Notes: generated by a model from the letters alone, not told the origin. A stretch of DNA of 12,493 nt from Candidatus Heimdallarchaeota archaeon (GCA_030668825.1 DAOVET010000078.1:1-12493); one strand, 5' to 3'. Positions 1-10,950 are shown, numbered from the stretch's first letter. Numbers and translations: made by a program.

Positions 1-300
1 GCGATTCTTGATTAAGGATATTTCTACCATCCCTTGTTTCTTAAGTGAATTCCTGATTTCCGATAATTCCTCATCTAAAATGGAAAAGAAGTGAGATTTC
101 TCCGGAAGAAAAACACCTGTCATTTTTCTGTTTGAAAGTAAGCCGCTAATCGCTACATAGCGTTTTTCCAAAGAAAGGTTTGATTGAATCTTTCTTATAT
201 TAATGAAATTGTTTGTTTCTAACTCCTCTAATATTGTTCTAGTGAATTTTTTTTCCTCAGAAGCAAATAGATCTTTTATCTTTTGTAAAAATGAACTCAT
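1..300 (-). CDS. Partial (runs off the left edge) protein with a winged-helix/PCI-like segment resembling DDRGK1/UFL1
   Basis: Not in the ORF track. ATG at 300 opens 100 stop-free codons to the window edge: MSSFLQKIKDLFASEEKKFTRTILEELETNNFINIRKIQSNLSLEKRYVAISGLLSNRKMTGVFLPEKSHFFSILDEELSEIRNSLKKQGMVEISLIKNR. The CDS is well supported; the domain call is by eye only. Confidence 0.75.
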   Translation of the reverse strand, partial: MSSFLQKIKDLFASEEKKFTRTILEELETNNFINIRKIQSNLSLEKRYVAISGLLSNRKMTGVFLPEKSHFFSILDEELSEIRNSLKKQGMVEISLIKNR

Positions 301-426
301 TATATTCAAGAATGATAATTTCGTTTCTTTTCTAAAATGTTACTCTTTGTGTTCATTCTCATATTGAACTAATTAAAGCTTAGAGCGATTGACAGGATAA
401 TTTACTCTCAAATAGAAATTGTGGAG

Positions 427-434
427 TTTATTTA
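427..434 (+). promoter_or_regulatory. Putative TATA box of the signalling cluster (probably leaderless mRNA)
   Basis: TTTATTTA begins 30 nt upstream of the ATG at 457; no SD-like motif before that ATG. Confidence 0.5.
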
Positions 435-456
435 GGTTGTTAGTGTATAAATATAG

Positions 457-1389
457 ATGTCTATGATAAACCACGAAAGAATATCTTCGGGGATAGAAGG
501 CCTTGATGTTCTAATGAATGGCGGAATAATCAAGAATTCTATAAATTCCATAGTAGGTAGTAGTGGAACAGGAAAAACTACTTTTGCTTTAGCTTACTTA
601 TATCAAGGACTTTTAGAAGGAGATCATACCCTTTATTTGTCCTTTGAAGAAACCCCCTCAAAATTAATTGGGGAAGCCGAATCTTTAGGAATTAACATTC
701 GTGAAATGACAAATGATGCTGAAGACCTAATTCATTTAGTTGAAAGTGAGAAGATTGTTGAGTTTATGACAAATATACTCCCTGCCCTAGCTCAAAAGTT
801 GAAACATCGAAATGTTAAACACACAAGAATTATTGTGGATCCACTCACACCTATATTGTGGGAATTTCCTTCAGAAAAAGAGCAAAGAAAAGTTCTAACT
901 AAGATCTATCACCATTTGAGCTCACTAGGTACGGTATTGCAAACTGTTGAAGAACCAAATGCTTTTGGTCAAACAGATATTGGTGCCAAAGAAACAAGAG
1001 TACCAATTTACTTATCTGATAGTGTCATTCACATACAAAATCTAGGTTTGGGGGGAAAATACAACAGAACTTGTAAGGTTGTTAAATCTCGAAAAACACC
1101 CCATCACGAAGGAATCTATCCTCTTAATTTTGTTAATGGACCAGGCTTAGTTATAGATACTAGTTCAATTCAGAACGTTGCATTTAATCCAGTTGTTAAC
1201 GACATAAGATACCAAGAGCTAATGAAAAGAGTGAAAGAACTCTCTAAAGATAAAGATCCAAAGAAAAGAGTGATTGCTCAAATTGCAAAGAACCTTCTTG
1301 GTGAAAGAGAGAATAGGGATAGTTCTCAGAATATGGAACTTGTTGAAGTATTAACAGATAAGCAGATATTACAAGAGGTAAGAAAATGA
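457..1389 (+). CDS. Single-domain KaiC-like RecA-superfamily ATPase (COG0467/RAD55-like)
   Basis: N-terminal RISSGIEGLD, Walker A GSSGTGKT, YLSFEE catalytic glutamates, Walker B RIIVD, and KVVKSRKTPH (K-x-R motif), plus a helical C-terminal extension. Confidence 0.9.
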   Translation: MSMINHERISSGIEGLDVLMNGGIIKNSINSIVGSSGTGKTTFALAYLYQGLLEGDHTLYLSFEETPSKLIGEAESLGINIREMTNDAEDLIHLVESEKIVEFMTNILPALAQKLKHRNVKHTRIIVDPLTPILWEFPSEKEQRKVLTKIYHHLSSLGTVLQTVEEPNAFGQTDIGAKETRVPIYLSDSVIHIQNLGLGGKYNRTCKVVKSRKTPHHEGIYPLNFVNGPGLVIDTSSIQNVAFNPVVNDIRYQELMKRVKELSKDKDPKKRVIAQIAKNLLGERENRDSSQNMELVEVLTDKQILQEVRK

Positions 1390-1745
1390 ATTTTAACCAA
1401 GGAATTGGTTCTGAATTAATGGATTTAAATCACTTAGATGAAGTAGAAGCCGCAATACTCTTCCGAATTGATGGGGATGTTGTTGATTCATCATTTAAGG
1501 AAGAATATTCTCACAATTTATTAAGAACAATTCAGTGGTGCAAAGCAAATGTTGACAAAGTTTCTTTAGAAATGAAATCAAACAATCTCAATAAAGTAAC
1601 TTACGAATTAAGTGAATTCTGTGTAATCTTTTATGTTGTAAATAGTATACTGATCCTAACAACTATTGCAAGCAAAAATGCTAATCTTAGTTTGTTATCT
1701 ATAGAATCCAAGAGAAAAGCTCTCTTAATCTCTAATTATTTGTGA
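1386..1745 (+). CDS. Roadblock/LC7 (MglB/LAMTOR2-like) domain protein
   Basis: 119 aa with the roadblock pattern VEAAILFRIDGDVV...helix...beta strands...ANLSLLSIESKRKALLI. ATGA overlap with the upstream gene and SD-like GAGGTA. Confidence 0.85.
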   Translation: MNFNQGIGSELMDLNHLDEVEAAILFRIDGDVVDSSFKEEYSHNLLRTIQWCKANVDKVSLEMKSNNLNKVTYELSEFCVIFYVVNSILILTTIASKNANLSLLSIESKRKALLISNYL

Positions 1746-3100
1746 GGGGTTTCTTTATGCAGATAGCAACAAGAACAACTAGCCACAGATCTATCAATAT
1801 AACTACAAAACATATCATCAAAGATGTTATTGGTGATATTAACGGCACACCTGACTTTCTGCTTATTGCGTATACTCCAAATTATCGTGAAAAAAGACAA
1901 TATGAGCAAGCTATATCAAAAATTTGTGAAGAAAGCGGAACACAGAATATAATCGGAGGAACATTTCCAGCTGTCGCTACATCGAATGATATACCAACTA
2001 CTCAAGGTTGTTCTGCAATGGCTTTCAAATCATCAGAATTGAATATTCATTCTTCAGTTTCCTATTCAAATATTAGAATAAACCCCAATAAGGGAATAGA
2101 TAAACTAATTCAACTCTTTAAAGATGATCAAAATAAGTTTAAGACAGGATTCTTCCTTACACCTGGTCCGTTTTTTCCACCCGATGCTTTCAAAGATATG
2201 AAAATATTGGATACTATCTTCGCACACAAATTTAGAGGAATGTTCAATATGATTGGTAAACTCATTAATCGAAATATGGGGAAGAATGGTTATGGTGTAA
2301 CATCGTTTGCATACAAGATGCTGATGAAATTACTGGAAAATAATGTAGAAAATGCCCTAGGAGGAGCCACTATTGATTTAGATATGCTCTCTTGTTATCA
2401 ATTTCAAGGAGAAAATGTTTTTCAAAATGCAATGGTTGGAACAGTCTTTTCTTCTGATACCCTGAACTTTGAACATAATTGGACATTTGATAAATCACAG
2501 AAGACTAAAAGCTTTGAGCTATCAAAGGGACTCAAAAGCAGCAGTTATGTTCATGAGATAAATGAAAGACCCGCCCATGAAGAATTTCTTGAATTGCTAG
2601 GTATGTCCAAAGAACTCTATGAAGAAGCTTTCAAAAATATGGCTTATGCTTCATTGTTGTATCTTTCTACATTGAAATCAAAGAATCAAGGGAATCTACC
2701 ATTTGTATCTGTATGTCATCCAACTTTGAAAGGAGTTATTTCAACAATTCCAGAGGAAATTTTAGATGAGAGCGAAAAAATCGCGGAATTTTTCACACAA
2801 TCTGGTTTAGGAGTGCAAAAATCTGCATATGAATGTGCTAATGCAGCAGCACAGAAAATTGATCATCCAATTTTTGGCCTTTTTATTAACTGCAGCAATA
2901 GATTGCTCATTGCTGGTGATAAAATTGAAGAGGAAAACAAGATGGTCAAAGAAGCAATAGGAACAGATGTACCTTTCATGACACTATATTCAGGAGGAGA
3001 ATTTTCCATAATTAAGAACAAGCCAATCTACTCTTCGGTTTCTGTACATGGGTTGGTTGCAGGATATAACAATTCACCACAAAAAAATGTGGTGCTTTAA
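1742..3100 (+). CDS. FIST (FIST_N + FIST_C, NosP-like) sensory domain protein
   Basis: PDFLLIAYT...IIGGT (FIST_N), GGAT, VHEINERPA, and GLFINCSNR...PFMTLYSGGEF (FIST_C C-x-x-R and GE motifs). GTGA overlap with the roadblock stop; alternative start ATG 1757 after GAGGGG. Confidence 0.85.
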   Translation: MRGFFMQIATRTTSHRSINITTKHIIKDVIGDINGTPDFLLIAYTPNYREKRQYEQAISKICEESGTQNIIGGTFPAVATSNDIPTTQGCSAMAFKSSELNIHSSVSYSNIRINPNKGIDKLIQLFKDDQNKFKTGFFLTPGPFFPPDAFKDMKILDTIFAHKFRGMFNMIGKLINRNMGKNGYGVTSFAYKMLMKLLENNVENALGGATIDLDMLSCYQFQGENVFQNAMVGTVFSSDTLNFEHNWTFDKSQKTKSFELSKGLKSSSYVHEINERPAHEEFLELLGMSKELYEEAFKNMAYASLLYLSTLKSKNQGNLPFVSVCHPTLKGVISTIPEEILDESEKIAEFFTQSGLGVQKSAYECANAAAQKIDHPIFGLFINCSNRLLIAGDKIEEENKMVKEAIGTDVPFMTLYSGGEFSIIKNKPIYSSVSVHGLVAGYNNSPQKNVVL

Positions 3101-3111
3101 ATATTTTTTTT
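3096..3111 (+). promoter_or_regulatory. Putative internal TATA box overlapping the FIST stop, followed by a T8 run
   Basis: TTTAAATA at 3096-3103 lies 29 nt upstream of ATG 3125; the T-run at 3104-3111 resembles an archaeal oligo-U terminator. Confidence 0.4.
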
Positions 3112-3721
3112 GGATATGATTATGATGAATGCAACGCCCCCTCAAAACTCACAACATGGCAATATATTGAAAATTGCTGTATTGGGGTTAGGTTCAGTGG
3201 GAAAAACTACAATATCTAAAAGCTATTCTGGAGAACTTGATGACCCAAACCAAATCTCAATGACAAAAGGTGTAGACATTACAGTGAAAAGAATAGTTCA
3301 CCAAGGTCGTACAGTAACTCTACAGATTTGGGATTTTGCTGGGCAAAAACAATTTCGATTTATGATTGATGTTTTCCTACGTGGAGTTAAAGGTGTAATG
3401 TATGTTTATGATATTACGGATATAGAAACCCTAGCCTATTTGAATGAATTTGTTGATCTAACCCGTAATTATTTAGCTAACCACTTCTATCCTAAAATTC
3501 CAGAAGTTTTAGTTGGAAACAAACTTGACTTGGAAGATTCGGAAGTATCCATAGAAGATATCCACGATTTCATGAAGAATTATGACATCAAAAAGCATTT
3601 TCTTGTGAGTGGTCTTTTATCAGGCAATGTTTCAGAACCCTTTGAGTATATTGTTAACCAGATAATAAACAAGGAACAAAGTCTAGCTGATGAGCTAGTA
3701 TCAAAATATCAGAGCTTCTAG
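3110..3721 (+). CDS. Ras-superfamily small GTPase (Rab-like/Roc-like), no prenylation tail
   Basis: G1 GLGSVGKT, G2 TKGVD, G3 WDFAGQ, G4 NKLD, G5 VSG; Rab-like RFMIDVFLRG and MYVYDIT segments. True start is probably one of the ATGs at 3116, 3122 or 3125. Confidence 0.93.
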   Translation: MDMIMMNATPPQNSQHGNILKIAVLGLGSVGKTTISKSYSGELDDPNQISMTKGVDITVKRIVHQGRTVTLQIWDFAGQKQFRFMIDVFLRGVKGVMYVYDITDIETLAYLNEFVDLTRNYLANHFYPKIPEVLVGNKLDLEDSEVSIEDIHDFMKNYDIKKHFLVSGLLSGNVSEPFEYIVNQIINKEQSLADELVSKYQSF

Positions 3722-3745
3722 CCAAATTGAAAGATAGGTAATCAA

Positions 3746-4063
3746 ATGAGAGATGTTGACAAATTTATTCGCAAAACATTCAGTTGTGATCATTGTGGAA
3801 AAATGCTAGAATGTAAAATTGAAAGAAAGCAATTGGAAAATTTAAGAGATAGTCAGTTGTTTAACTTTGTTTTAATGCACGCAGACGATCATACATTAAT
3901 CGTTTCAATTGACAGAAGAGGTGAAATTAGAAGATTAAGGATAGCATCACTTAGCTCCAGTGCCGTTCAAGAAACTGAATTTTCTGATTTGGAAATTTAC
4001 CACGCTTTAGAAAAATGTGAAAATATTATCGATGCCTTTAATGTTTTTTTAAAAAATAAATAA
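3746..4063 (+). CDS. Small putative Zn-binding hypothetical protein (CxxC...HxxxH)
   Basis: CDHC near the N-terminus and HADDHTLIVSIDRRGEIR; SD-like AGGTAA upstream; 24 nt after the GTPase stop. Confidence 0.75.
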   Translation: MRDVDKFIRKTFSCDHCGKMLECKIERKQLENLRDSQLFNFVLMHADDHTLIVSIDRRGEIRRLRIASLSSSAVQETEFSDLEIYHALEKCENIIDAFNVFLKNK

Positions 4064-4103
4064 AAAGATATTGAAAAAGAAAATAAGAAGGAAATAGAAA
4101 ATT
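4064..4103 (-). terminator. U-rich terminator region of the ribosomal protein operon
   Basis: The minus strand right after the rpl12 stop reads AATTTTCTATTTCCTTCTTATTTTCTTTTTC, between convergent genes. Confidence 0.55.
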
Positions 4104-4409
4104 CTAACCGAATAGAGCACTTAGACCTAAATCGGCATCTTCTTCTGGTTCTTCTTCTTTTTCTTCATTAGCTTCTGCGGGTGCTGCTTTATCACTTGCA
4201 GCTCCAGGAGATGCTGCAGCTGGTGCAGCAGCCATAACAGTAGCTTTCAAAGCTTCTTCAATATTAACGTCTTTCAAGGCTGCTACTAAAGCTTTAATTC
4301 GAGATTCATCTACTTTTGCTCCAGCGGCTTCAAGTATTCCTTTTACCTTTGTTTGAGTAATATTTTCACCTAATTCATGAAGTATTAATGCTGCATATAC
4401 ATATTCCAT
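4104..4409 (-). CDS. rpl12: 50S ribosomal stalk protein P1 (archaeal L12)
   Basis: MEYVYAALILH N-terminus, Ala-rich hinge, acidic tail ending GLSALFG. Start moved from GTG 4418 to ATG 4409 because SD AGGTGA (4420-4415) sits 5 nt upstream. Confidence 0.97.
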   Translation of the reverse strand: MEYVYAALILHELGENITQTKVKGILEAAGAKVDESRIKALVAALKDVNIEEALKATVMAAAPAAASPGAASDKAAPAEANEEKEEEPEEDADLGLSALFG

Positions 4410-4418
4410 ATTTTTCAC

Positions 4419-5423
4419 CTATCCAAATAACGATCCTAATCCTAGATCTTCCTCGGGTTCTTCCTCAGATTCTTCCTCGGGTTCTTCAGCTACAATAGTT
4501 TCAGTCTGTTGAACTTTTGGAGCTTCAGAAAGTTTGGTCTGAGCTTTGTCTGATAAAGCTCTCGAATCTTTTTCTGCTACAAAAGCTGCGACAGAAAGAG
4601 ATCCTCGAACTGCTTTTGTTAGAATTAATGACAGAGATTTCTTAGTTAGAAATCCAGCATTAACTGAAAGATTGAGAGCTAATTGATGAGCATTTGAAAG
4701 TATCAACAACAAGCTTTGTTTTGTTACAAATCCAGCATTAACTGCTAGATTCAAAGCAGAATTGTAAGCCCATTGAATGTTTGCTCTATATTGCTCATAA
4801 TCAAGTAATAAAGCATCCCCAGGAATGATTTCCCCGTCTTCAAAAGCAACAACAAAACTTAAACCAGTTTGAAAGGGATTGATGTCTAATCTTCTTAGAA
4901 GAAGAGCAACGGTTCTATTTACACGGTCACCTTCTTTAGTTACAACCGCTTCCTCTGCGATACGTATTTGTCCTCCTTCAATCCTTGTTTTGAGTCCTAA
5001 TGATTGTAATTCAGCAATGACAGGTCCAGGAGGGATTCCTGTATTCATTGGTCTAATTATAACATCATTAGGTGCGTATTGTCCAGCTTTTGCTGGTGCG
5101 GGTACTTTATTCTCATCCATGAAAGTCGCTAATTTGTAAGGATTTGTTTCACTTAGTAAGAATGCGCAGGAACCAACAATGTATTCTAATAATTTTTCAA
5201 TACCTGGAACCTTTTTCTTCAAATCAGAAATAGCGATTCTCATTAAGCTATTTCTAGCCATAACAATTTTAGCATCCTTTCGTAAATCTTTTCTCATTCT
5301 TTGAACAACGCTTGCATTGATATTATCAATTCTAACGAGTCCAATAATGGGATAGGATGTGAGATCGTTCTTTAGTTTCTCAACTATTTGTTTTTTCTTT
5401 TCAGAAACTTTTACGGTTGACAT
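4419..5423 (-). CDS. rplP0: 50S ribosomal protein uL10 (archaeal P0/L10)
   Basis: QRMRKDLR...MARNSL, APAKAGQYAPNDVII..NTGIPPGP, P1-binding helices, acidic tail GLGSLFG; SD GGTGA overlaps the rpl1 stop codon. Confidence 0.97.
   Translation of the reverse strand: MSTVKVSEKKKQIVEKLKNDLTSYPIIGLVRIDNINASVVQRMRKDLRKDAKIVMARNSLMRIAISDLKKKVPGIEKLLEYIVGSCAFLLSETNPYKLATFMDENKVPAPAKAGQYAPNDVIIRPMNTGIPPGPVIAELQSLGLKTRIEGGQIRIAEEAVVTKEGDRVNRTVALLLRRLDINPFQTGLSFVVAFEDGEIIPGDALLLDYEQYRANIQWAYNSALNLAVNAGFVTKQSLLLILSNAHQLALNLSVNAGFLTKKSLSLILTKAVRGSLSVAAFVAEKDSRALSDKAQTKLSEAPKVQQTETIVAEEPEEESEEEPEEDLGLGSLFG
4650..4744. repeat. Internal 78-nt-period duplication in rplP0 (P1-dimer-binding helices)
   Basis: AAATCCAGCATTAACTG is identical at 4650-4666 and 4728-4744; protein repeats ALNLAVNAGFVTK / ALNLSVNAGFLTK. 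Confidence 0.8.
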
Positions 5424-5431
5424 CTTGTCAC

Positions 5432-6073
5432 CTACTTAACCTTTATTGCAGGACCCATTGTAGTTTTAATGTAAATTGTACGTATGTTATTTTCCCCTTT
5501 TTCGAGTCTGTTTTCAACGTTTCTTAGTACAGTCAATGCATTCTCAACTATAGAATCATTTTCCATAGCTATAGTAGCAATCCTAGCATTAATAACGGGG
5601 GATTGTCTCAGACGGACTTGTATTGTCGTTTGAAAGTCATTGATGAGCGGTTCGATTGGTGCAGTTGGGGGTAAAGGTCTAGGCATTTTACCGCGAGGAC
5701 CAAGGAACTTTCCCAAACTTCTACCAATGGTTGGCATCAATGAAGCTGTTGCGATAAAGAAATCATATTGTTGGGCTAATTTCTTTGCTATCTTGGGTTC
5801 TCTACTAATGTTGTCCAATTCATCTTTATTGATGATTCTAGCTGCTCCCGCTGATTCAGCGTCTACTAGATGTGATCCTTCTCCAAGCACACAAATCTTA
5901 ATATCTTTCTCTAGAGGGTGAGGAAGTCTAACATCCATCTGAAACCTCTTTGAAGGATCCTGAAGATTAATATCTTTGAAATTGATCGCTATATCAACTG
6001 ATTCAACAAACTTACGAGCAGGTGAATCTTTTTTCATTTTTTCAATTGCAATTTTAAGTTCTTGTTCTACCAT
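5432..6073 (-). CDS. rpl1: 50S ribosomal protein uL1
   Basis: RKFVESVDIAIN, DFFIA...LGKFLGPRGKMP, and YIKTTMGP signature motifs. Confidence 0.98.
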   Translation of the reverse strand: MVEQELKIAIEKMKKDSPARKFVESVDIAINFKDINLQDPSKRFQMDVRLPHPLEKDIKICVLGEGSHLVDAESAGAARIINKDELDNISREPKIAKKLAQQYDFFIATASLMPTIGRSLGKFLGPRGKMPRPLPPTAPIEPLINDFQTTIQVRLRQSPVINARIATIAMENDSIVENALTVLRNVENRLEKGENNIRTIYIKTTMGPAIKVK

Positions 6074-6087
6074 AAGTATCAGCCTCT

Positions 6088-6126
6088 ACCACTTCCGTTA
6101 AGCCCATTGACAACGGTCAGCGTGGT
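6088..6126 (-). promoter_or_regulatory. Structured 5' leader of rpl1 (kink-turn-like hairpin, candidate autoregulatory site)
   Basis: Minus-strand RNA ACCAC-GCUGA-CCGUU...AACGG-AA-GUGGU: two 5-bp stems around an asymmetric loop, directly before SD-like AGAGG. Confidence 0.6.
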
Positions 6127-6155
6127 CAGAACTTAAGAGAAGAAAAGAATGTCTG

Positions 6156-6163
6156 CTTTTAAA
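6156..6163 (-). promoter_or_regulatory. Putative TATA box of the rpl1-rplP0-rpl12 operon
   Basis: TTTAAAAG preceded by purine-rich GATAAGA; predicted TSS near 6133, just ahead of the hairpin. Confidence 0.55.
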
Positions 6164-6186
6164 TCTTATCAAATGCGAGAGTATGA

Positions 6187-9018
6187 TTAAGTATTTATTG
6201 TCTCTTTAATCCCAAGAGAGAATCTTGTGAGAATGCTGTAAGCTTCATTTGGAGTTAGGATATTCTCTGAAATAAAGTCCACAACCAAAGTTTTTACTGT
6301 ACAAAAGACTAGATTTTCATCGAATTCAAGGTTTCTCTTCGTAGATATTGCGGAAACCAAGGAATTAAGTTCTCCTACATCAGTAAGCAAAATAGAAATC
6401 TCCTCAGTGGAACATTCATTGAGTATAGTGGATTTCACAACTTTTGCTCCCATATTATACTTCATGCAGTTTTTTCCGCCATCCTCCTGAAAACACAATT
6501 GTTCGCATATCAGATTTTCAGGCAGTAGTCCAGCGGAAGAAATGAAATCTAAAGTATCTTTTTCTACAATCATTTTCTTGTTAGAATCGACTTTCAATAC
6601 ATTTCTTGGTATGAAATTATCCAATTTGTTTTGCGATAGATCATGTTTTTTGCTTGCTAATTTCTTGCCTCTTCCAACAGCATTTGCGTTGCTCTGTTGA
6701 AAAATTGAAGTTCGCATATCTATGAAGCTTTTAAACAACAGCGGAAAAACGCTTCTACCATATTTTTTTAACATTTTTACCTGGTATTCTGCAAAACTAA
6801 TAGGATCTGTTATTAAGTCTAGCGTTTGAATCTTTACAGCAGAATCTGAACCTTCGAAGAACAAGAAACAATGTCGTGAAGGTAAGCTCTGAATGTTAGA
6901 TATTTCATCCTCTTCCAAATTTAGAGCCTTAGCAATGATATCTGTTTTTTCACTTGATCTGAATACAAACTTAGTAGCAGAATTACCATGAACAATTTTG
7001 CTTACACTATCCCACATTTGAAATATTGTGATGTGTCCTATACCTAGGCTTCTTCCCAATAAAAAATTATTTTCAGCAGTAATTAAAGATGCAGAGCTTT
7101 CAGAGTGATAGAAATTAGGGATTATATTGATCGCTTCTTCTAGGACTACTAAATATCTCAAATTGCGTGTCATTTCTTTTGCAGATGCTTGTCTATAGAG
7201 CATTTTGAGTATCAAATTACACACTAAAAAAATATCTGAGGGTCTTGCTGCTCTTCTTTGAAATTGGCTTAAATCAAGAATAATACTCTTACCTTTATCT
7301 AGAAGTGAAAGATCTAAAGTGGTTCTCATAGCCCCTAGAATCTCAAAATTAATCGGATTGAAAATGAAATTCAATCTATTCAAAACAGCATCTATTGTCT
7401 GCTGTAAATAGGTAATGTTGGAATGAGTTTGTAATTCGCGTGAAACCTTGAAGATATTTTCCACAAAGACTTGTAAATTCCTCTTTGGGGAGCTGTGAGT
7501 TAATATGAGCGCACTCTCAAACAGATTCTTCATTGCAGGTGTAAACTCTTGATTTGAAGAAACCAGCATTTCCTCAATAATTAGCAAAGTATTATGTAAA
7601 TCATCCGAATCAGTGGTTTCAAAAATATTCAAACATAATGGATGGGGTTTTCCAATTGTGTATATCTCAACATTTGGGTGGTCTGTGAATGTTCTAGCAT
7701 ATTCACCCTTAATATCGAAAACTAATGTACTGACCTTATTTTCCAGTAGTTGTCCAATAACAGAGGTGATTAAGTAAGATTTTCCTCGACCAATTTGCCC
7801 TGCAACCTCAAGATTAAGCAAGAAATCTTTTAAGCTAAGGAAAATCTCTTTTCCCACATCACTGTCACCTACCATTTTACCAACAAGGATTTGTTCATCT
7901 TCACCCCTTAGAAAAGAAGTGCCAAAACCATCTTTCACAGCACTAACGGGTAAAGATCCACCCCTATAAGCCATAGGAACATGCACTAAGGAAGCGACAT
8001 CATCAATTAATACAGATTCTTTCTTACGAATTGGGGAAAAAACTAGATTGAGGAAATTCTTGTTAGGTGCTATAATTTTTCTTTTCTTTTTGGACAAACC
8101 AGACGCATTTAAAATAAATGACTCTGTAGCATTGTCTTCAGATAGAAGAAGAAGATCAAAAACAATTTTCTTGGATTCTCTCCTTTTCTTATCTGTCTTA
8201 ATGATAAAACAAGTATCCTTTATATCATTCTTAACAAAGATGTTATACATTTGATCAGTCATGTTAAATTGAGTAATCAACTCAGAAGAAGATTCAATTT
8301 TACTCTTGGCTTTCATTTGATTCAGAGCTTGAACAAGATCTTTAGTCTGATCACCATTCAAAGTTTTAATTCTGCAATCATAATGACTATCAATGGAATT
8401 AGAAATGAAGATAATGTCTCGATTTAATCGTTGATTAGTTCTGTCCTTTAACCAACCTCTAGAAATAACTGGAAAAAATATGCTTACTCCCTTAGCATGT
8501 TTATAAATTGCTAACATTTTATCTTTTGTTCTCAATGAAAGACAATTAACGAAGGCTTCGTGAATCTTGTTAGCATAGCTACTGTGATTAAATTTATTGT
8601 TGCCATTTCCTATTGAGGAAGAAACCATTACTACACCAATCTTTCTAAAAAAGAAGGGTAGAAACAATTTCTTTTGAGTGTAGAATTTTGCATCATCAAT
8701 GTTGTAGAAAGGTAATAATCTAACTGCAATGAAAATTAAGAGTATAGCTGAAATTGAGGAAATGAAGGCCAAATTAGTAAAGAGAGTAACAAAGAGACCT
8801 TTCAAGAAAAGAGCAGTTTTTTCACTGAAAGCGGCTATAGAAACGAAAAAATCAGATGGAAACAATTTCAGTAACTCTGGAAAGAGAAATATAAAAGAAA
8901 CAAAACCAATAACAATTACACAAATCCAAGGAAGAATCACTCTAATAATCCTTCTAGTATTAGTTTGTTGTTGTTTATTAGAATTATAACGAAACTGCAA
9001 TTTCTTCTTTTTAGCCAT
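6187..9018 (-). CDS. Membrane-anchored HerA/FtsK-superfamily ATPase (DUF87/VirB4/coupling-protein-like)
   Basis: Basic N-terminus and two hydrophobic helices; Walker A GQIGRGKS, FDIKGEY, Walker B LVVLEEA, arginine-finger/glutamine motif GRSLGIGHITIFQ; SD AGGTGG upstream. Confidence 0.85.
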   Translation of the reverse strand: MAKKKKLQFRYNSNKQQQTNTRRIIRVILPWICVIVIGFVSFIFLFPELLKLFPSDFFVSIAAFSEKTALFLKGLFVTLFTNLAFISSISAILLIFIAVRLLPFYNIDDAKFYTQKKLFLPFFFRKIGVVMVSSSIGNGNNKFNHSSYANKIHEAFVNCLSLRTKDKMLAIYKHAKGVSIFFPVISRGWLKDRTNQRLNRDIIFISNSIDSHYDCRIKTLNGDQTKDLVQALNQMKAKSKIESSSELITQFNMTDQMYNIFVKNDIKDTCFIIKTDKKRRESKKIVFDLLLLSEDNATESFILNASGLSKKKRKIIAPNKNFLNLVFSPIRKKESVLIDDVASLVHVPMAYRGGSLPVSAVKDGFGTSFLRGEDEQILVGKMVGDSDVGKEIFLSLKDFLLNLEVAGQIGRGKSYLITSVIGQLLENKVSTLVFDIKGEYARTFTDHPNVEIYTIGKPHPLCLNIFETTDSDDLHNTLLIIEEMLVSSNQEFTPAMKNLFESALILTHSSPKRNLQVFVENIFKVSRELQTHSNITYLQQTIDAVLNRLNFIFNPINFEILGAMRTTLDLSLLDKGKSIILDLSQFQRRAARPSDIFLVCNLILKMLYRQASAKEMTRNLRYLVVLEEAINIIPNFYHSESSASLITAENNFLLGRSLGIGHITIFQMWDSVSKIVHGNSATKFVFRSSEKTDIIAKALNLEEDEISNIQSLPSRHCFLFFEGSDSAVKIQTLDLITDPISFAEYQVKMLKKYGRSVFPLLFKSFIDMRTSIFQQSNANAVGRGKKLASKKHDLSQNKLDNFIPRNVLKVDSNKKMIVEKDTLDFISSAGLLPENLICEQLCFQEDGGKNCMKYNMGAKVVKSTILNECSTEEISILLTDVGELNSLVSAISTKRNLEFDENLVFCTVKTLVVDFISENILTPNEAYSILTRFSLGIKETINT

Positions 9019-9273: not shown

Positions 9274-10950
9274 TCATTTACTATCGAGAAATTCAACAAC
9301 CATCTGTTTTGATTGTTTATCATAAATATCAGCAAAAGCTGTCTGTTGAAACTTATCAACTAAAGAATCTATAGCTTTTGTAGAGGTTATTAACTTTAGA
9401 AAAAGATTCACCTCTTCTGCCATTTTTATAAAATTGTTATTTTTACAAAAAATAGCCAAATCACCAAATTCTTCTAACACCTCTTTATTTGCTGGATTTT
9501 CCAAGTATCTTTTTAGCAACTTGAATAGTTTAATCCACAACTTTAGAACAGGGGTATCTGCTTGATCTTCTTGTGCGCTTATTTTCAAAACAACTTCTCT
9601 AAATTCTTCGAAATTACCAATGGATACATAAATTTTTCCAAGCACAATATCTGCATATAATGGATTATAAACATAATCTCTAATAAGTCTGAGATTGTCG
9701 ATTGTTTTATCTGTAGCAGTAAAGGCTTCTAAGGAAAGTAATTGCTGATGAATCAGCAAATTAAACTCATCAAGGTTTGTTCTTTTTTTAATCTTAATTT
9801 CATTTAGATGTTGTTCATCTAATGTATTATCAAATAGCAGTTCTTCTGATAAATTAGAATTTTCAATAAGCGTTTTTGTATAGTTATGAATCTTTCGTAG
9901 TTTTTCATCTTCAATATTTTCAATATTAATATCAAGTTGAGCAAAAATAAATAATAGCGTATAATATGCTCCAAAATATAATCTCTTCATTTTGATACCT
10001 TGATAATTTTGTTTCACAAAATCACTTTCTATGAAATTTAAAAATTCCATTAAAGTATCATAAGACAACTGAAATTTTCCTTGAAAAGCATAACATCTGC
10101 ATAGCAGCTTTAGAATCTCAATATATTCATACATCTTTGTTTTTTGAGAGCTAGATTCTTTCACTCTATTGTACGCATCTGAGAGAAAATGAATTGCTTC
10201 ATCAATTCTAGATCTAATTGCAAAAACCCTTCCAACAAATGAGTAGAGTAAAGCAAAGTGACTGTCAAGTATGCTATCTTGCATTCTCTCTTCTTCAAAG
10301 ACCCAATAAATTAGCTGTTTGAATTTTTCTTTTTTCCCTAAAAAACTATAATATCTAAGCAATCTAAAAATCCCTGTAATCATCGGTAAAGTATTTTGAT
10401 TCGAATGCCAATATTTGACACACTTTTCAACATTTTTTATAACTTCTAGGTGATTTTTATTATTCATCCATGAGAAAATACTAAACGTATAAAGAATTCT
10501 GTAATAGGTGTCAGGGTATTGTTCTCTTTTAATTTCTATTGTACTCATTGCATCAGATATTAGTGAATTTGAATCTTTAACTAAACCAACAAGTCGTTTT
10601 ACCAGAGACTTTGAAAGAGAAACATAAGCAAGATGTTCTACATTTTGAGATTTTGCGGCGATAGATTCCATTCTTTTTAGAATTTGTTTGACTTCATTTA
10701 GATTCTGCTCATAATAGTAGATTTGCTGAAAGTAGAGATTTAGAATTTTTAAACGTAAATCTTCACTTTCGATATCATCAATGTTGATAGATATGCTATT
10801 CAGAACAGAAGCTAATTCAAGTGATCTTTCATTAGTACACACAAGTTCTAAATCATCTATGTAATTTTCTAAAAAGGACAAATCATGTAAAAATCTTTTA
10901 TTTTCAAGTATTCTTTTCTTTGCTCTTTGAAACTCTTCAGTATCTAGCAT
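9274..10950 (-). CDS. TPR-like alpha-helical repeat hypothetical protein
   Basis: 558 aa with TPR-type helix pairs (ALLYSFVGRVFAIRSRIDEAIHFLSDAY; LCRCYAFQGKFQLSYDTL; LGKIYVSIGNFEEF); no catalytic motif recognised. Confidence 0.75.
   Translation of the reverse strand: MLDTEEFQRAKKRILENKRFLHDLSFLENYIDDLELVCTNERSLELASVLNSISINIDDIESEDLRLKILNLYFQQIYYYEQNLNEVKQILKRMESIAAKSQNVEHLAYVSLSKSLVKRLVGLVKDSNSLISDAMSTIEIKREQYPDTYYRILYTFSIFSWMNNKNHLEVIKNVEKCVKYWHSNQNTLPMITGIFRLLRYYSFLGKKEKFKQLIYWVFEEERMQDSILDSHFALLYSFVGRVFAIRSRIDEAIHFLSDAYNRVKESSSQKTKMYEYIEILKLLCRCYAFQGKFQLSYDTLMEFLNFIESDFVKQNYQGIKMKRLYFGAYYTLLFIFAQLDINIENIEDEKLRKIHNYTKTLIENSNLSEELLFDNTLDEQHLNEIKIKKRTNLDEFNLLIHQQLLSLEAFTATDKTIDNLRLIRDYVYNPLYADIVLGKIYVSIGNFEEFREVVLKISAQEDQADTPVLKLWIKLFKLLKRYLENPANKEVLEEFGDLAIFCKNNNFIKMAEEVNLFLKLITSTKAIDSLVDKFQQTAFADIYDKQSKQMVVEFLDSK

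Follow-up and report, generated by a model that had tools for sequence, protein, structure and literature searches.

In Myxococcus and Thermus, the single-domain small GTPase MglA is paired with MglB, a stand-alone roadblock protein whose homodimer is the GTPase-activating protein (GAP). The Ragulator-Rag system combines LAMTOR and Rag heterodimers, and the C-terminal roadblock domain of the Rag GTPases is their contact with Ragulator. Archaeal KaiC-like ATPases were reportedly described as 'signal transduction hubs' by Makarova, Galperin and Koonin in 2017. The Streptomyces conservons CvnA-D are described as containing a sensor kinase, a roadblock protein, a small protein of unknown function and a small GTPase (PMC4316618), and for Asgard archaea Liu et al. 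(bioRxiv 10.1101/2020.10.19.343400) describe an operon in which a LAMTOR1-like roadblock protein is encoded with a Rab-like GTPase and a DENN-domain protein. Type IV pilus loci are linked with KaiC-family ATPases and also, separately, with roadblock proteins (PMC4858521). Here we describe a module of five genes at positions 457-4063 of a contig from Candidatus Heimdallarchaeota archaeon (GCA_030668825.1, DAOVET010000078.1), which encodes a KaiC-like ATPase, a roadblock-fold protein, a FIST protein, a small GTPase of Rab-like type and one small putative zinc-knuckle protein. The window analysed is the entire contig of 12,493 bases, and belongs to a 2.76-Mb genome that is 90.6% complete.

The module is real, conserved and operon-like, and among known kinds of system it represents a new combination. 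Its conserved core consists of the KaiC-like ATPase, the roadblock protein whose gene directly follows, and a FIST protein from a subfamily of Asgard archaea with regular linkage to roadblock genes. The Heimdallarchaeaceae add to this core one particular Rab-like GTPase, chosen from about 20 paralogs in the genome, along with the small zinc-knuckle protein.

Similar to MglA-MglB, the module combines a stand-alone roadblock protein with a single-domain small GTPase. However, its GTPase is Rab-like and keeps the aspartate of the G3 motif, and the module additionally has the KaiC-like ATPase, the FIST protein and the zinc-knuckle protein. Like a conservon, it brings together a sensor and an ATP-using enzyme, a roadblock protein, a small protein and a small GTPase in one conserved cluster. 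The small protein of the conservons belongs to the DUF742 family. In contrast, the five proteins of the module gave no HATPase/HisKA or DUF742 match, and the GTPase is Rab-like instead of MglA-like; sensing and the use of ATP would be the tasks of the FIST protein and the KaiC-like ATPase. The module is neither an MglA-MglB system nor a conservon. In agreement with the hub idea, a single-domain KaiC-family ATPase is encoded together with putative input and output proteins. With the operon of the LAMTOR1-like and Rab-like proteins it shares the conserved Asgard pairing of a roadblock-superfamily protein and a Rab-like GTPase, but it has no DENN domain and possesses KaiC and FIST, neither of which is a word used in the main text of that preprint (bioRxiv 10.1101/2020.10.19.343400).

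A conceptual similarity to Ragulator-Rag nutrient sensing had been put forward in a preliminary description of the window, made from the sequence alone. A roadblock fold beside a small GTPase, with a possible nutrient-type sensor, is indeed common to both. Nevertheless, the module has one roadblock gene and no heterodimer set, and its GTPase of 198 amino acids scores as Rab and not as Rag, without the C-terminal roadblock domain. Because neither the GTPase type nor the single roadblock gene fits, the comparison is weak and was not retained.

No description of the module was found in the literature, although the KaiC-hub paper and the Asgard supplementary tables, which lie outside that search, may list it. 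Likewise, no paper was found that joins a FIST domain with KaiC, or that is relevant, judged by title or abstract, to the combination of FIST, roadblock and GTPase. Asgard genomes encode dozens of small GTPases and many proteins of the roadblock and longin types, and it is the pairing of regulators with GTPases that is at issue. GTPase genes of strain MK-D1 are described as generally not standing in operons with roadblock genes, so that partners are hard to predict from the genome layout (Tran et al. 2024, PMC10933270). With the module, one GTPase and one roadblock protein are named, together with three more candidate partners, and since these named partners are linked throughout the family, closed genomes included, a small set of reconstitution experiments is possible. 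The module also connects eukaryote-like GTPase signalling with the 'KaiC hub' idea for archaea.

The five genes and their proteins

The genes of the module are the following:

457..1389, plus strand: gene 1, single-domain KaiC-like (RecA-superfamily) ATPase of 310 amino acids (PF06745, PDB matches to KaiC CI)
1386..1745, plus strand: gene 2, diverged Roadblock/LC7-fold protein of 119 amino acids (AlphaFold2 model, Foldseek, annotations of relatives)
1757..3100, plus strand: gene 3, FIST protein (FIST_N and FIST_C) of 447 amino acids from the conserved ATG (Pfam, comparison of starts)
3125..3721, plus strand: gene 4, Rab-like small GTPase of 198 amino acids from the ATG at 3125 (Pfam Ras, PDB Rab matches)
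3746..4063, plus strand: gene 5, small beta-rich protein of 105 amino acids with a CxxC...HxxxH pattern (invariant residues, AlphaFold2 model)

The preliminary description had reported five co-oriented genes at 457-4063, and all five were recovered as plus-strand open reading frames (ORFs). The longest ORFs span 457-1389, 1386-1745, 1742-3100, 3110-3721 and 3746-4063, and their junctions are an ATGA overlap, a GTGA overlap, a gap of 9 nucleotides (nt) and a gap of 24 nt. Comparison of start codons across 13 loci showed that the ATGA overlap of genes 1 and 2, as described before, is retained in 11 of them. The GTGA overlap described with it could not be maintained: the GTG at 1742 is not conserved, a TGA lies near residue 2 of this frame in 12 of 23 matches, and the FIST start common to 9/13 loci is the ATG at 1757, which leaves a gap of 11 nt after gene 2. 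The reported gaps of 9 and 24 nt are correct for the longest ORFs; however, the first of them depends on a TTG at 3110, and the comparison places the probable GTPase start at an ATG within 3116-3125. The module is tightly packed, with one true overlap instead of two. The labels KaiC-like ATPase, FIST protein and small GTPase agree with Pfam, and with PDB sequence matches in the case of the ATPase and the GTPase. Also in agreement with the earlier reading, no histidine kinase, receiver or helix-turn-helix domain was found in the five proteins with Pfam and NCBIfam.

Gene 1 matches the KaiC family (PF06745) over residues 10-233 with 125.9 bits (cut-off 26.6, E-value 2e-36), and among PDB sequences it matches KaiC CI domains best (E 1e-39). 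The protein possesses a Walker A motif (GSSGTGKTT), a catalytic-glutamate motif (SFEE) and a Walker B-like motif (RIIVDPLT), and 12 sequences, taken from three lineages, share G37, G39, K40, T42, E64 and D128 without exception. The C-terminal helical tail of about 75 residues is absent from the copies in the other family that carries the core (see below). Gene 1 is not a circadian KaiC proper, which has tandem CI and CII domains and about 500 amino acids: it has one domain in 310 amino acids, both KaiC halves align to one and the same region of it, and its scores of 112.5 and 77 bits against the NCBIfam KaiC equivalogs are below every cut-off (408 and 546).

The roadblock identity of gene 2 was upheld by its fold, which matches MglB and LAMTOR, even though the local Pfam library gave no match at E <= 10, Robl_LC7 (PF03259) included. 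The AlphaFold2 model built from 21 sequences has a predicted local distance difference test (pLDDT) score of 91.1 and the topology alpha-beta-beta-alpha-beta-beta-beta-alpha. Top Foldseek matches of the model were Roadblock3 of MK-D1, MglC, a Thorarchaeota roadblock protein, MglB and LAMTOR subunits (E 2e-7 to 1e-5, template modelling score 0.7-0.8, probability 1.00), at an identity to solved roadblock proteins of 10-18%. A word-index search revealed 41 relatives of gene 2, 56-98% identical and all from Heimdallarchaeota-type records. All 41 carry a precomputed PF27410 match, a family missing from the local library, and one of them carries PF03259 in addition; several are named Roadblock/LC7/MglB by the Joint Genome Institute (JGI). 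By the modelled fold and the annotations of its relatives, gene 2 is a roadblock protein. Its profile also reaches canonical Robl_LC7 proteins (E 1e-9 to 1e-4) from many families and in mixed contexts, with a GTPase gene adjoining in 3 of the 13 such loci scanned.

Gene 3 matches FIST_N (PF08495) with 28.4 bits against a cut-off of 23.2, and both FIST_N and FIST_C are precomputed on many of its relatives. The word-index search returned close relatives only, the named matches being Heimdallarchaeota or 'Asgard group' records, and a profile of 11 sequences found no sequence relative in the PDB. In a midpoint-rooted tree of 19 rows, a small sample, the FIST proteins linked to KaiC and those linked to Lux-type genes in other Asgard loci fall into a single clade (99/98) that excludes seven canonical FIST proteins. 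With the module, a roadblock-associated FIST subfamily is defined in Asgard archaea.

Gene 4 is one of about 20 small GTPase paralogs in the source genome. It matches Pfam Ras with 102.2 bits (E 3e-29), while Gtr1_RagA reaches 26 bits over the G domain, and the best PDB sequence matches are Rab43, Ypt1, Rab18, Rab7 and a Thorarchaeota Rab. Invariant in 14 sequences are the P-loop GxxxxGKT, T47 of switch I, the DxxGQ motif (D70, G73 and Q74, the catalytic glutamine), K133 and D135 of NKxD, and S162 of G5. The MglA family has a G3 motif without the usual aspartate; the G3 motif of gene 4 reads WDFAGQ with an invariant D70 and is therefore not of the MglA type. Eukaryotic Rab proteins proper carry a C-terminal cysteine motif for prenylation, and the tail of gene 4 (...SKYQSF) has no cysteine, which sets it apart from them. 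With 198-203 amino acids, the protein is a G domain alone, without the C-terminal roadblock domain of Rag/Gtr GTPases. Complex prediction from alignments for two roadblock copies and the GTPase gave 0.00 and 0.01 against a mark of 0.32; run without controls, it weighs neither way.

Gene 5 had been called a Zn protein. The conserved C-C-H-H pattern agrees with this name, but no family was found for it in Pfam (even at E <= 10) or NCBIfam, and no fold match with Foldseek against the PDB at E <= 1e-3 or with a wide VIA-align search (best Z 3.5). Residues C14, C17, C23, H45 and H49 are invariant in 22 sequences, and three distant relatives keep C14, C17, H45 and H49 but not C23. The AlphaFold2 model (pLDDT 67.7) shows a C-terminal helix besides five strands, and residues 70-89 are disordered in it. 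C14/C17 lie between the strands at 7-13 and 20-26, and H45/H49 between those at 39-44 and 49-55. Since the cysteine pair and the histidine pair each stand in a loop between two strands of the model, gene 5 probably has a zinc-ribbon-like predicted C2H2 site with a His-His second knuckle. The 43 close relatives found by the word-index search are all without a Pfam family, those with a name coming from Heimdallarchaeota or 'Asgard group' records, and ESM Atlas returned unnamed archaeal clusters only, commonest in Promethearchaeota. A profile search against 1.84 billion representatives gave ten proteins at E <= 1e-3, one of which, a HEAT-repeat protein, was taken as spurious. Judged from these sequence searches, gene 5 is a new, rare family confined to Asgard archaea.

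Relatives of gene 5 beyond the family are weak (E 3e-5 to 7e-3 in the genome search, hhalign probability 85-96%). One of them is a 290-amino-acid protein (L065:7148-8017, minus strand) whose N-terminal 67 residues are gene 5-like (hhalign 90%), with the C-C-H-H pattern kept; the rest of this protein is an Arf/Rag-like GTPase domain. Another forms the start of a 276-amino-acid protein, the gene of which overlaps an Arf-like GTPase gene (L066), and a third lies 1.1 kb from a Ras GTPase gene. These relatives hint at a link of gene 5 to GTPases. Three more, from one genus and 107-124 amino acids long (L063:7967-8323, L067:7952-8272, L070:7918-8289), stand directly upstream of an ORF of 441-444 amino acids, which in L063 matches T2SSE, a type II/IV secretion-type ATPase; they are located about 13 kb from the KaiC-roadblock-FIST cluster of the same genus. 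Two other distant relatives were found in unrelated contexts.

Conservation of the cluster in Asgard archaea

The FIST gene is present in 21 of the 24 other genomes of the genus, and the three genomes without it are 72-82% complete. The five genes occur in the same order in 19/23 loci of the genus; the remaining four loci are cut by contig ends. The order within the genus says little alone, because synteny there extends over all of the 12-kb neighbourhood, with its ribosomal genes. In four other genera of the family, the five genes were found in order in 6/6 loci, at a protein identity of 43-74%. In these six loci, the ribosomal P1, P0 and L1 genes were not found nearby, and EF-1alpha lies downstream in the three that have downstream sequence. 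A scan of a genome collection with the FIST alignment detected 28 loci, 24 of them complete for the five genes and four cut; their genomes overlap with the genus and family set and are not independent. The records are labelled Heimdallarchaeota, Heimdallarchaeum, 'Promethearchaeati', plain 'archaeon' or uncultured archaeon, and belong to the same family only. The neighbourhood in relatives, proposed earlier as a check, thus shows the genes linked and in one order. The five genes behave like a single conserved unit, above the level of synteny in the genus, and their arrangement is more than chance.

A contig of 6,848 bases binned in another family (G077:C96; L136, L163) carries ORFs of KaiC, roadblock and FIST size in the same order. 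Its module, with a roadblock profile match of E 2e-61, is typical of Heimdallarchaeaceae, and it looks like a mis-binned contig.

Beyond the family, gene contexts were examined within the Asgard phylum. The Pfam FIST model matches in 94 of 400 Asgard genomes, from which 20 contexts were taken. Pfam was run on 111 of 164 ORFs in 16 of these contexts, while L131, L135 and L138, from genera already covered, and the mis-binned-looking L136 were left out. In 4/16 scanned loci, KaiC, a small protein, FIST and an MFS transporter follow each other in this order. Three of the four belong to one genus in another family of the same class, where they are all of the loci scanned (3/3), and the fourth to a genome of another class. 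The small protein between KaiC and FIST is homologous to gene 2, with hhalign probabilities of 97.5% and 98.8%. In the other-family genus, a Ras-family GTPase gene stands upstream of KaiC; roadblock and FIST matches are adjacent on one contig in 20 of its 22 genomes, and 17 of the 22 have a Ras-family GTPase gene at most about 1.5 kb away.

Five further loci (L142, L143, L144, L145, L147) encode FIST followed by a LuxE-like protein, with one or more proteins without a known family upstream. A LuxC-like gene follows LuxE in four of them, and the contig of L144 ends shortly past LuxE. A small protein of 134-139 amino acids heads the cluster in L142, L143 and L147, with a Robl_LC7 match in L147 only, and L142 and L147 contain a weak gelsolin-like match. 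The order in these clusters is small protein, protein of about 325 amino acids, weak gelsolin-like protein, FIST, LuxE-like acyl-protein synthetase and LuxC-like acyl-CoA reductase; L144 and L145 have only the FIST-LuxE part in common with the others. The protein of about 325 amino acids was considered as KaiC-like and rejected (hhalign probability 0.6%), and so was membership of the Lux-type roadblock protein in the gene 2 subfamily (0.9%). In the remaining seven of the 16 scanned FIST loci, no KaiC or roadblock neighbour was found; the fusion protein of L139 (see below) is encoded at one of these seven.

The source genome contains eight Robl_LC7 and ten KaiC matches. At a second locus (G000:C44, L193:3025-5825), a roadblock gene (173 amino acids), a weak KaiC-like gene (275 amino acids) and a gene of 267 amino acids lie on one strand, convergent with a Ras-family GTPase gene. 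The genome of Methanocaldococcus jannaschii, used as a control, has FIST, Robl_LC7 and KaiC matches somewhere in the genome.

Proposed signalling route and its alternatives

The reading that we prefer, with a probability of about 0.45, is that a signal received by the FIST protein is passed via the KaiC-like oligomer, and that the roadblock protein, as adaptor, sets the state of the Rab-like GTPase. Gene order, families, folds and catalytic motifs are observed, and from them we infer the contacts and the direction of the signal flow. The FIST protein would bind a small molecule, possibly a transported solute, because an MFS transporter gene follows the core in two other lineages. Ligand binding would alter the KaiC-like oligomer in its ATPase or autophosphorylation state. 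The roadblock dimer would read this state as adaptor and act on the switch regions of the GTPase in the way that MglB acts on MglA, and so determine whether the Rab-like protein is in the GTP or the GDP state, and the zinc-knuckle protein would be a partner of the GTPase, either effector or co-regulator.

In favour of this route are the conserved five-gene order, the recurrence of the core with a gene 2 homologue outside the family, the frequent nearness of a Ras-family GTPase gene to it in the other family, the fold of gene 2, which is like that of the GAP MglB, the complete G motifs of the GTPase, and the Walker A motif and catalytic glutamate of the ATPase. In addition, a gene 5-like domain occurs fused to an Arf/Rag-like GTPase domain (L065) and another beside an Arf-like GTPase gene (L066), and the second roadblock-KaiC pair of the genome lies by a Ras GTPase gene. 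A more specific version is a ligand-gated Rab-type GTPase switch with a timer or amplifier driven by ATP, in which the FIST ligand sensor and the KaiC-type ATPase would form a sensory unit of prokaryotic style, connected directly to the GTPase through the roadblock protein as its dedicated adaptor and through the zinc-knuckle protein as a new GTPase partner; in this form the proposal is unlikely. If true, an Asgard small GTPase would for the first time have a defined set of regulators, and roadblock-based nutrient sensing in eukaryotes would have a possible forerunner.

Several observations weigh against the preferred route. No GTPase was found at E <= 1e-8 on the 34.7-kb contig of the other-class genome that carries the core. 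The GTPase of the other-family genus is 33% identical to gene 4 and is not the protein that gene 4 matches best in those genomes, and for this reason it may not be an ortholog; the two families may have recruited different GTPase paralogs, or the protein may have diverged fast. In 16 genomes from three sister families of the same order, the FIST gene was not found, which makes the distribution patchy. FIST_C (PF10442) on gene 3 reaches 26.6 bits, just under the cut-off of 28.5, and no ligand is known for this protein. The link between gene 5 and GTPases is weak, being built on weak matches, and other distant relatives stand beside a type IV ATPase gene or unrelated genes. Upstream, OST3/6-like and UFL1-like genes are syntenic in several genera, so that part of the conservation may be plain synteny.

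Transcription data belong to the same side. Four out of nine listed runs, all consisting of contigs, were compared with positions 1-6200, and one of them (X5) is recorded as RNA. Its short pieces, 95-99% alike, cover parts of gene 1 (478-744), gene 3 (2562-2753) and ribosomal genes, with DNA carry-over possible. No X5 piece within 1-6200 spans any gene junction, and evidence for co-transcription was thus not obtained.

In the preliminary description, a sensor and a KaiC-like hub were proposed to feed the GTPase through the roadblock protein. The joint conservation of the five genes is consistent with this proposal. However, because the core recurs with a differently placed GTPase, or with none found nearby, the gene neighbourhoods point to the ATPase and FIST, instead of the GTPase, as the partners that constantly accompany the roadblock protein.

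This leads to an alternative which is possible, though doubtful: the core triad would be a self-contained regulatory unit of the KaiC type, with roadblock and FIST as input and output partners, as KaiA and KaiB are for KaiC. The roadblock protein would regulate the ATPase instead of the GTPase; the GTPase and the zinc-knuckle protein would be a separate pair, merely co-transcribed or acting downstream. The roadblock gene always lies between KaiC and FIST in three lineages, and its start overlaps the KaiC stop in 11/13 loci. One genome has the triad with no GTPase found nearby, and the position of the GTPase, possibly also its identity, differs between families, although a Ras-family GTPase is present in the co-oriented cluster of two families, in 17/22 genomes of one and in all complete loci of the other. 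The gaps between FIST, GTPase and gene 5 are also just 9-24 nt. The occurrence of a second roadblock and KaiC-like pair in the same genome fits a triad, as does the proposal that the Roadblock/LC7 superfamily regulates NTPases in general (Koonin and Aravind 2000, as cited by PMC4316618); nevertheless, where the fold matches include a solved roadblock complex, the partner is a GTPase (MglA-MglB, Ragulator-Rag) and not a RecA-like ATPase.

It is rather improbable that the module chiefly regulates or joins small-molecule uptake or metabolism, with FIST working together with a transporter or an enzyme pair and the other proteins accessory. The MFS gene directly after FIST in two lineages agrees with such a role, and in the sister FIST group, LuxE-like and LuxC-like genes come after FIST at four loci and LuxE alone at L144. 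Although the KaiC-linked and Lux-linked FIST proteins form one clade in the 19-row tree, the Heimdallarchaeaceae clusters contain no transporter or enzyme gene, and the partners in this family are switch and regulator proteins.

That the gene order is inherited synteny without a common function is very improbable. The whole 12-kb neighbourhood is syntenic in the genus, with unrelated ribosomal genes, and upstream neighbours are kept in several genera. However, the five genes stay together despite a changed downstream flank and, in one genus, a changed upstream flank, their junctions are overlapping or very short, and the core recurs in distant lineages in different surroundings. An anti-virus defence system built on a KaiC/RecA-like ATPase is hardly credible: gene 1 has a weak P-loop-level PADLOC match to mad8 (24.7 bits) and a HerA-like gene lies 2 kb downstream on the other strand, but genes 2-5 are without any PADLOC match, and the vertical conservation and the fixed place by translation genes are unlike typical defence islands.

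Neighbouring genes and further FIST loci

Other features of the window are the following:

1..309, minus strand: UFL1/DDRGK/PCI-like winged-helix gene, cut by the contig end (weak DDRGK match)
6187-9018, minus strand: HerA-like protein of 943 amino acids (central HerA/DUF87 ATPase domain)
9274-10950, minus strand: protein of 558 amino acids without a family, next after the 943-amino-acid gene (no Pfam family)

The UFL1-like gene lies upstream of the module and divergent to it, and is complete in a near-identical relative (L071:2786-3553), where it encodes 255 amino acids and matches PCI, E3_UFM1_ligase and DDRGK. A UFL1/DDRGK/PCI-like gene adjoins gene 1 in four of five genera (present in L057, L060 and L062, not in L061), with an OST3/6-like gene near it upstream; in one genus, an RNA cyclase gene takes its place. 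It may be a sixth component of the module or a UFMylation-like eukaryotic signature protein, and its membership is uncertain. For this reason, the earlier claim of a self-contained pathway is uncertain as well.

Downstream of the module and convergent to it, the window contains genes for the ribosomal proteins P1, P0 and L1, the 943-amino-acid HerA-like protein and the 558-amino-acid protein. The HerA-like protein possesses a long N-terminal region that is hydrophobic-looking by sequence, and its gene is syntenic within the genus.

Two other FIST loci differ in composition. At L137:4711-11430, in another Asgard family, two tandem canonical FIST genes are flanked by genes for a V4R-domain protein, a RING-finger protein and a JAB/MPN protease. 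At L139:6356-11455, a protein of 1,315 amino acids is a fusion of FIST, PAS, GAF and histidine kinase domains, and a Ras-family GTPase gene lies just downstream on the other strand.

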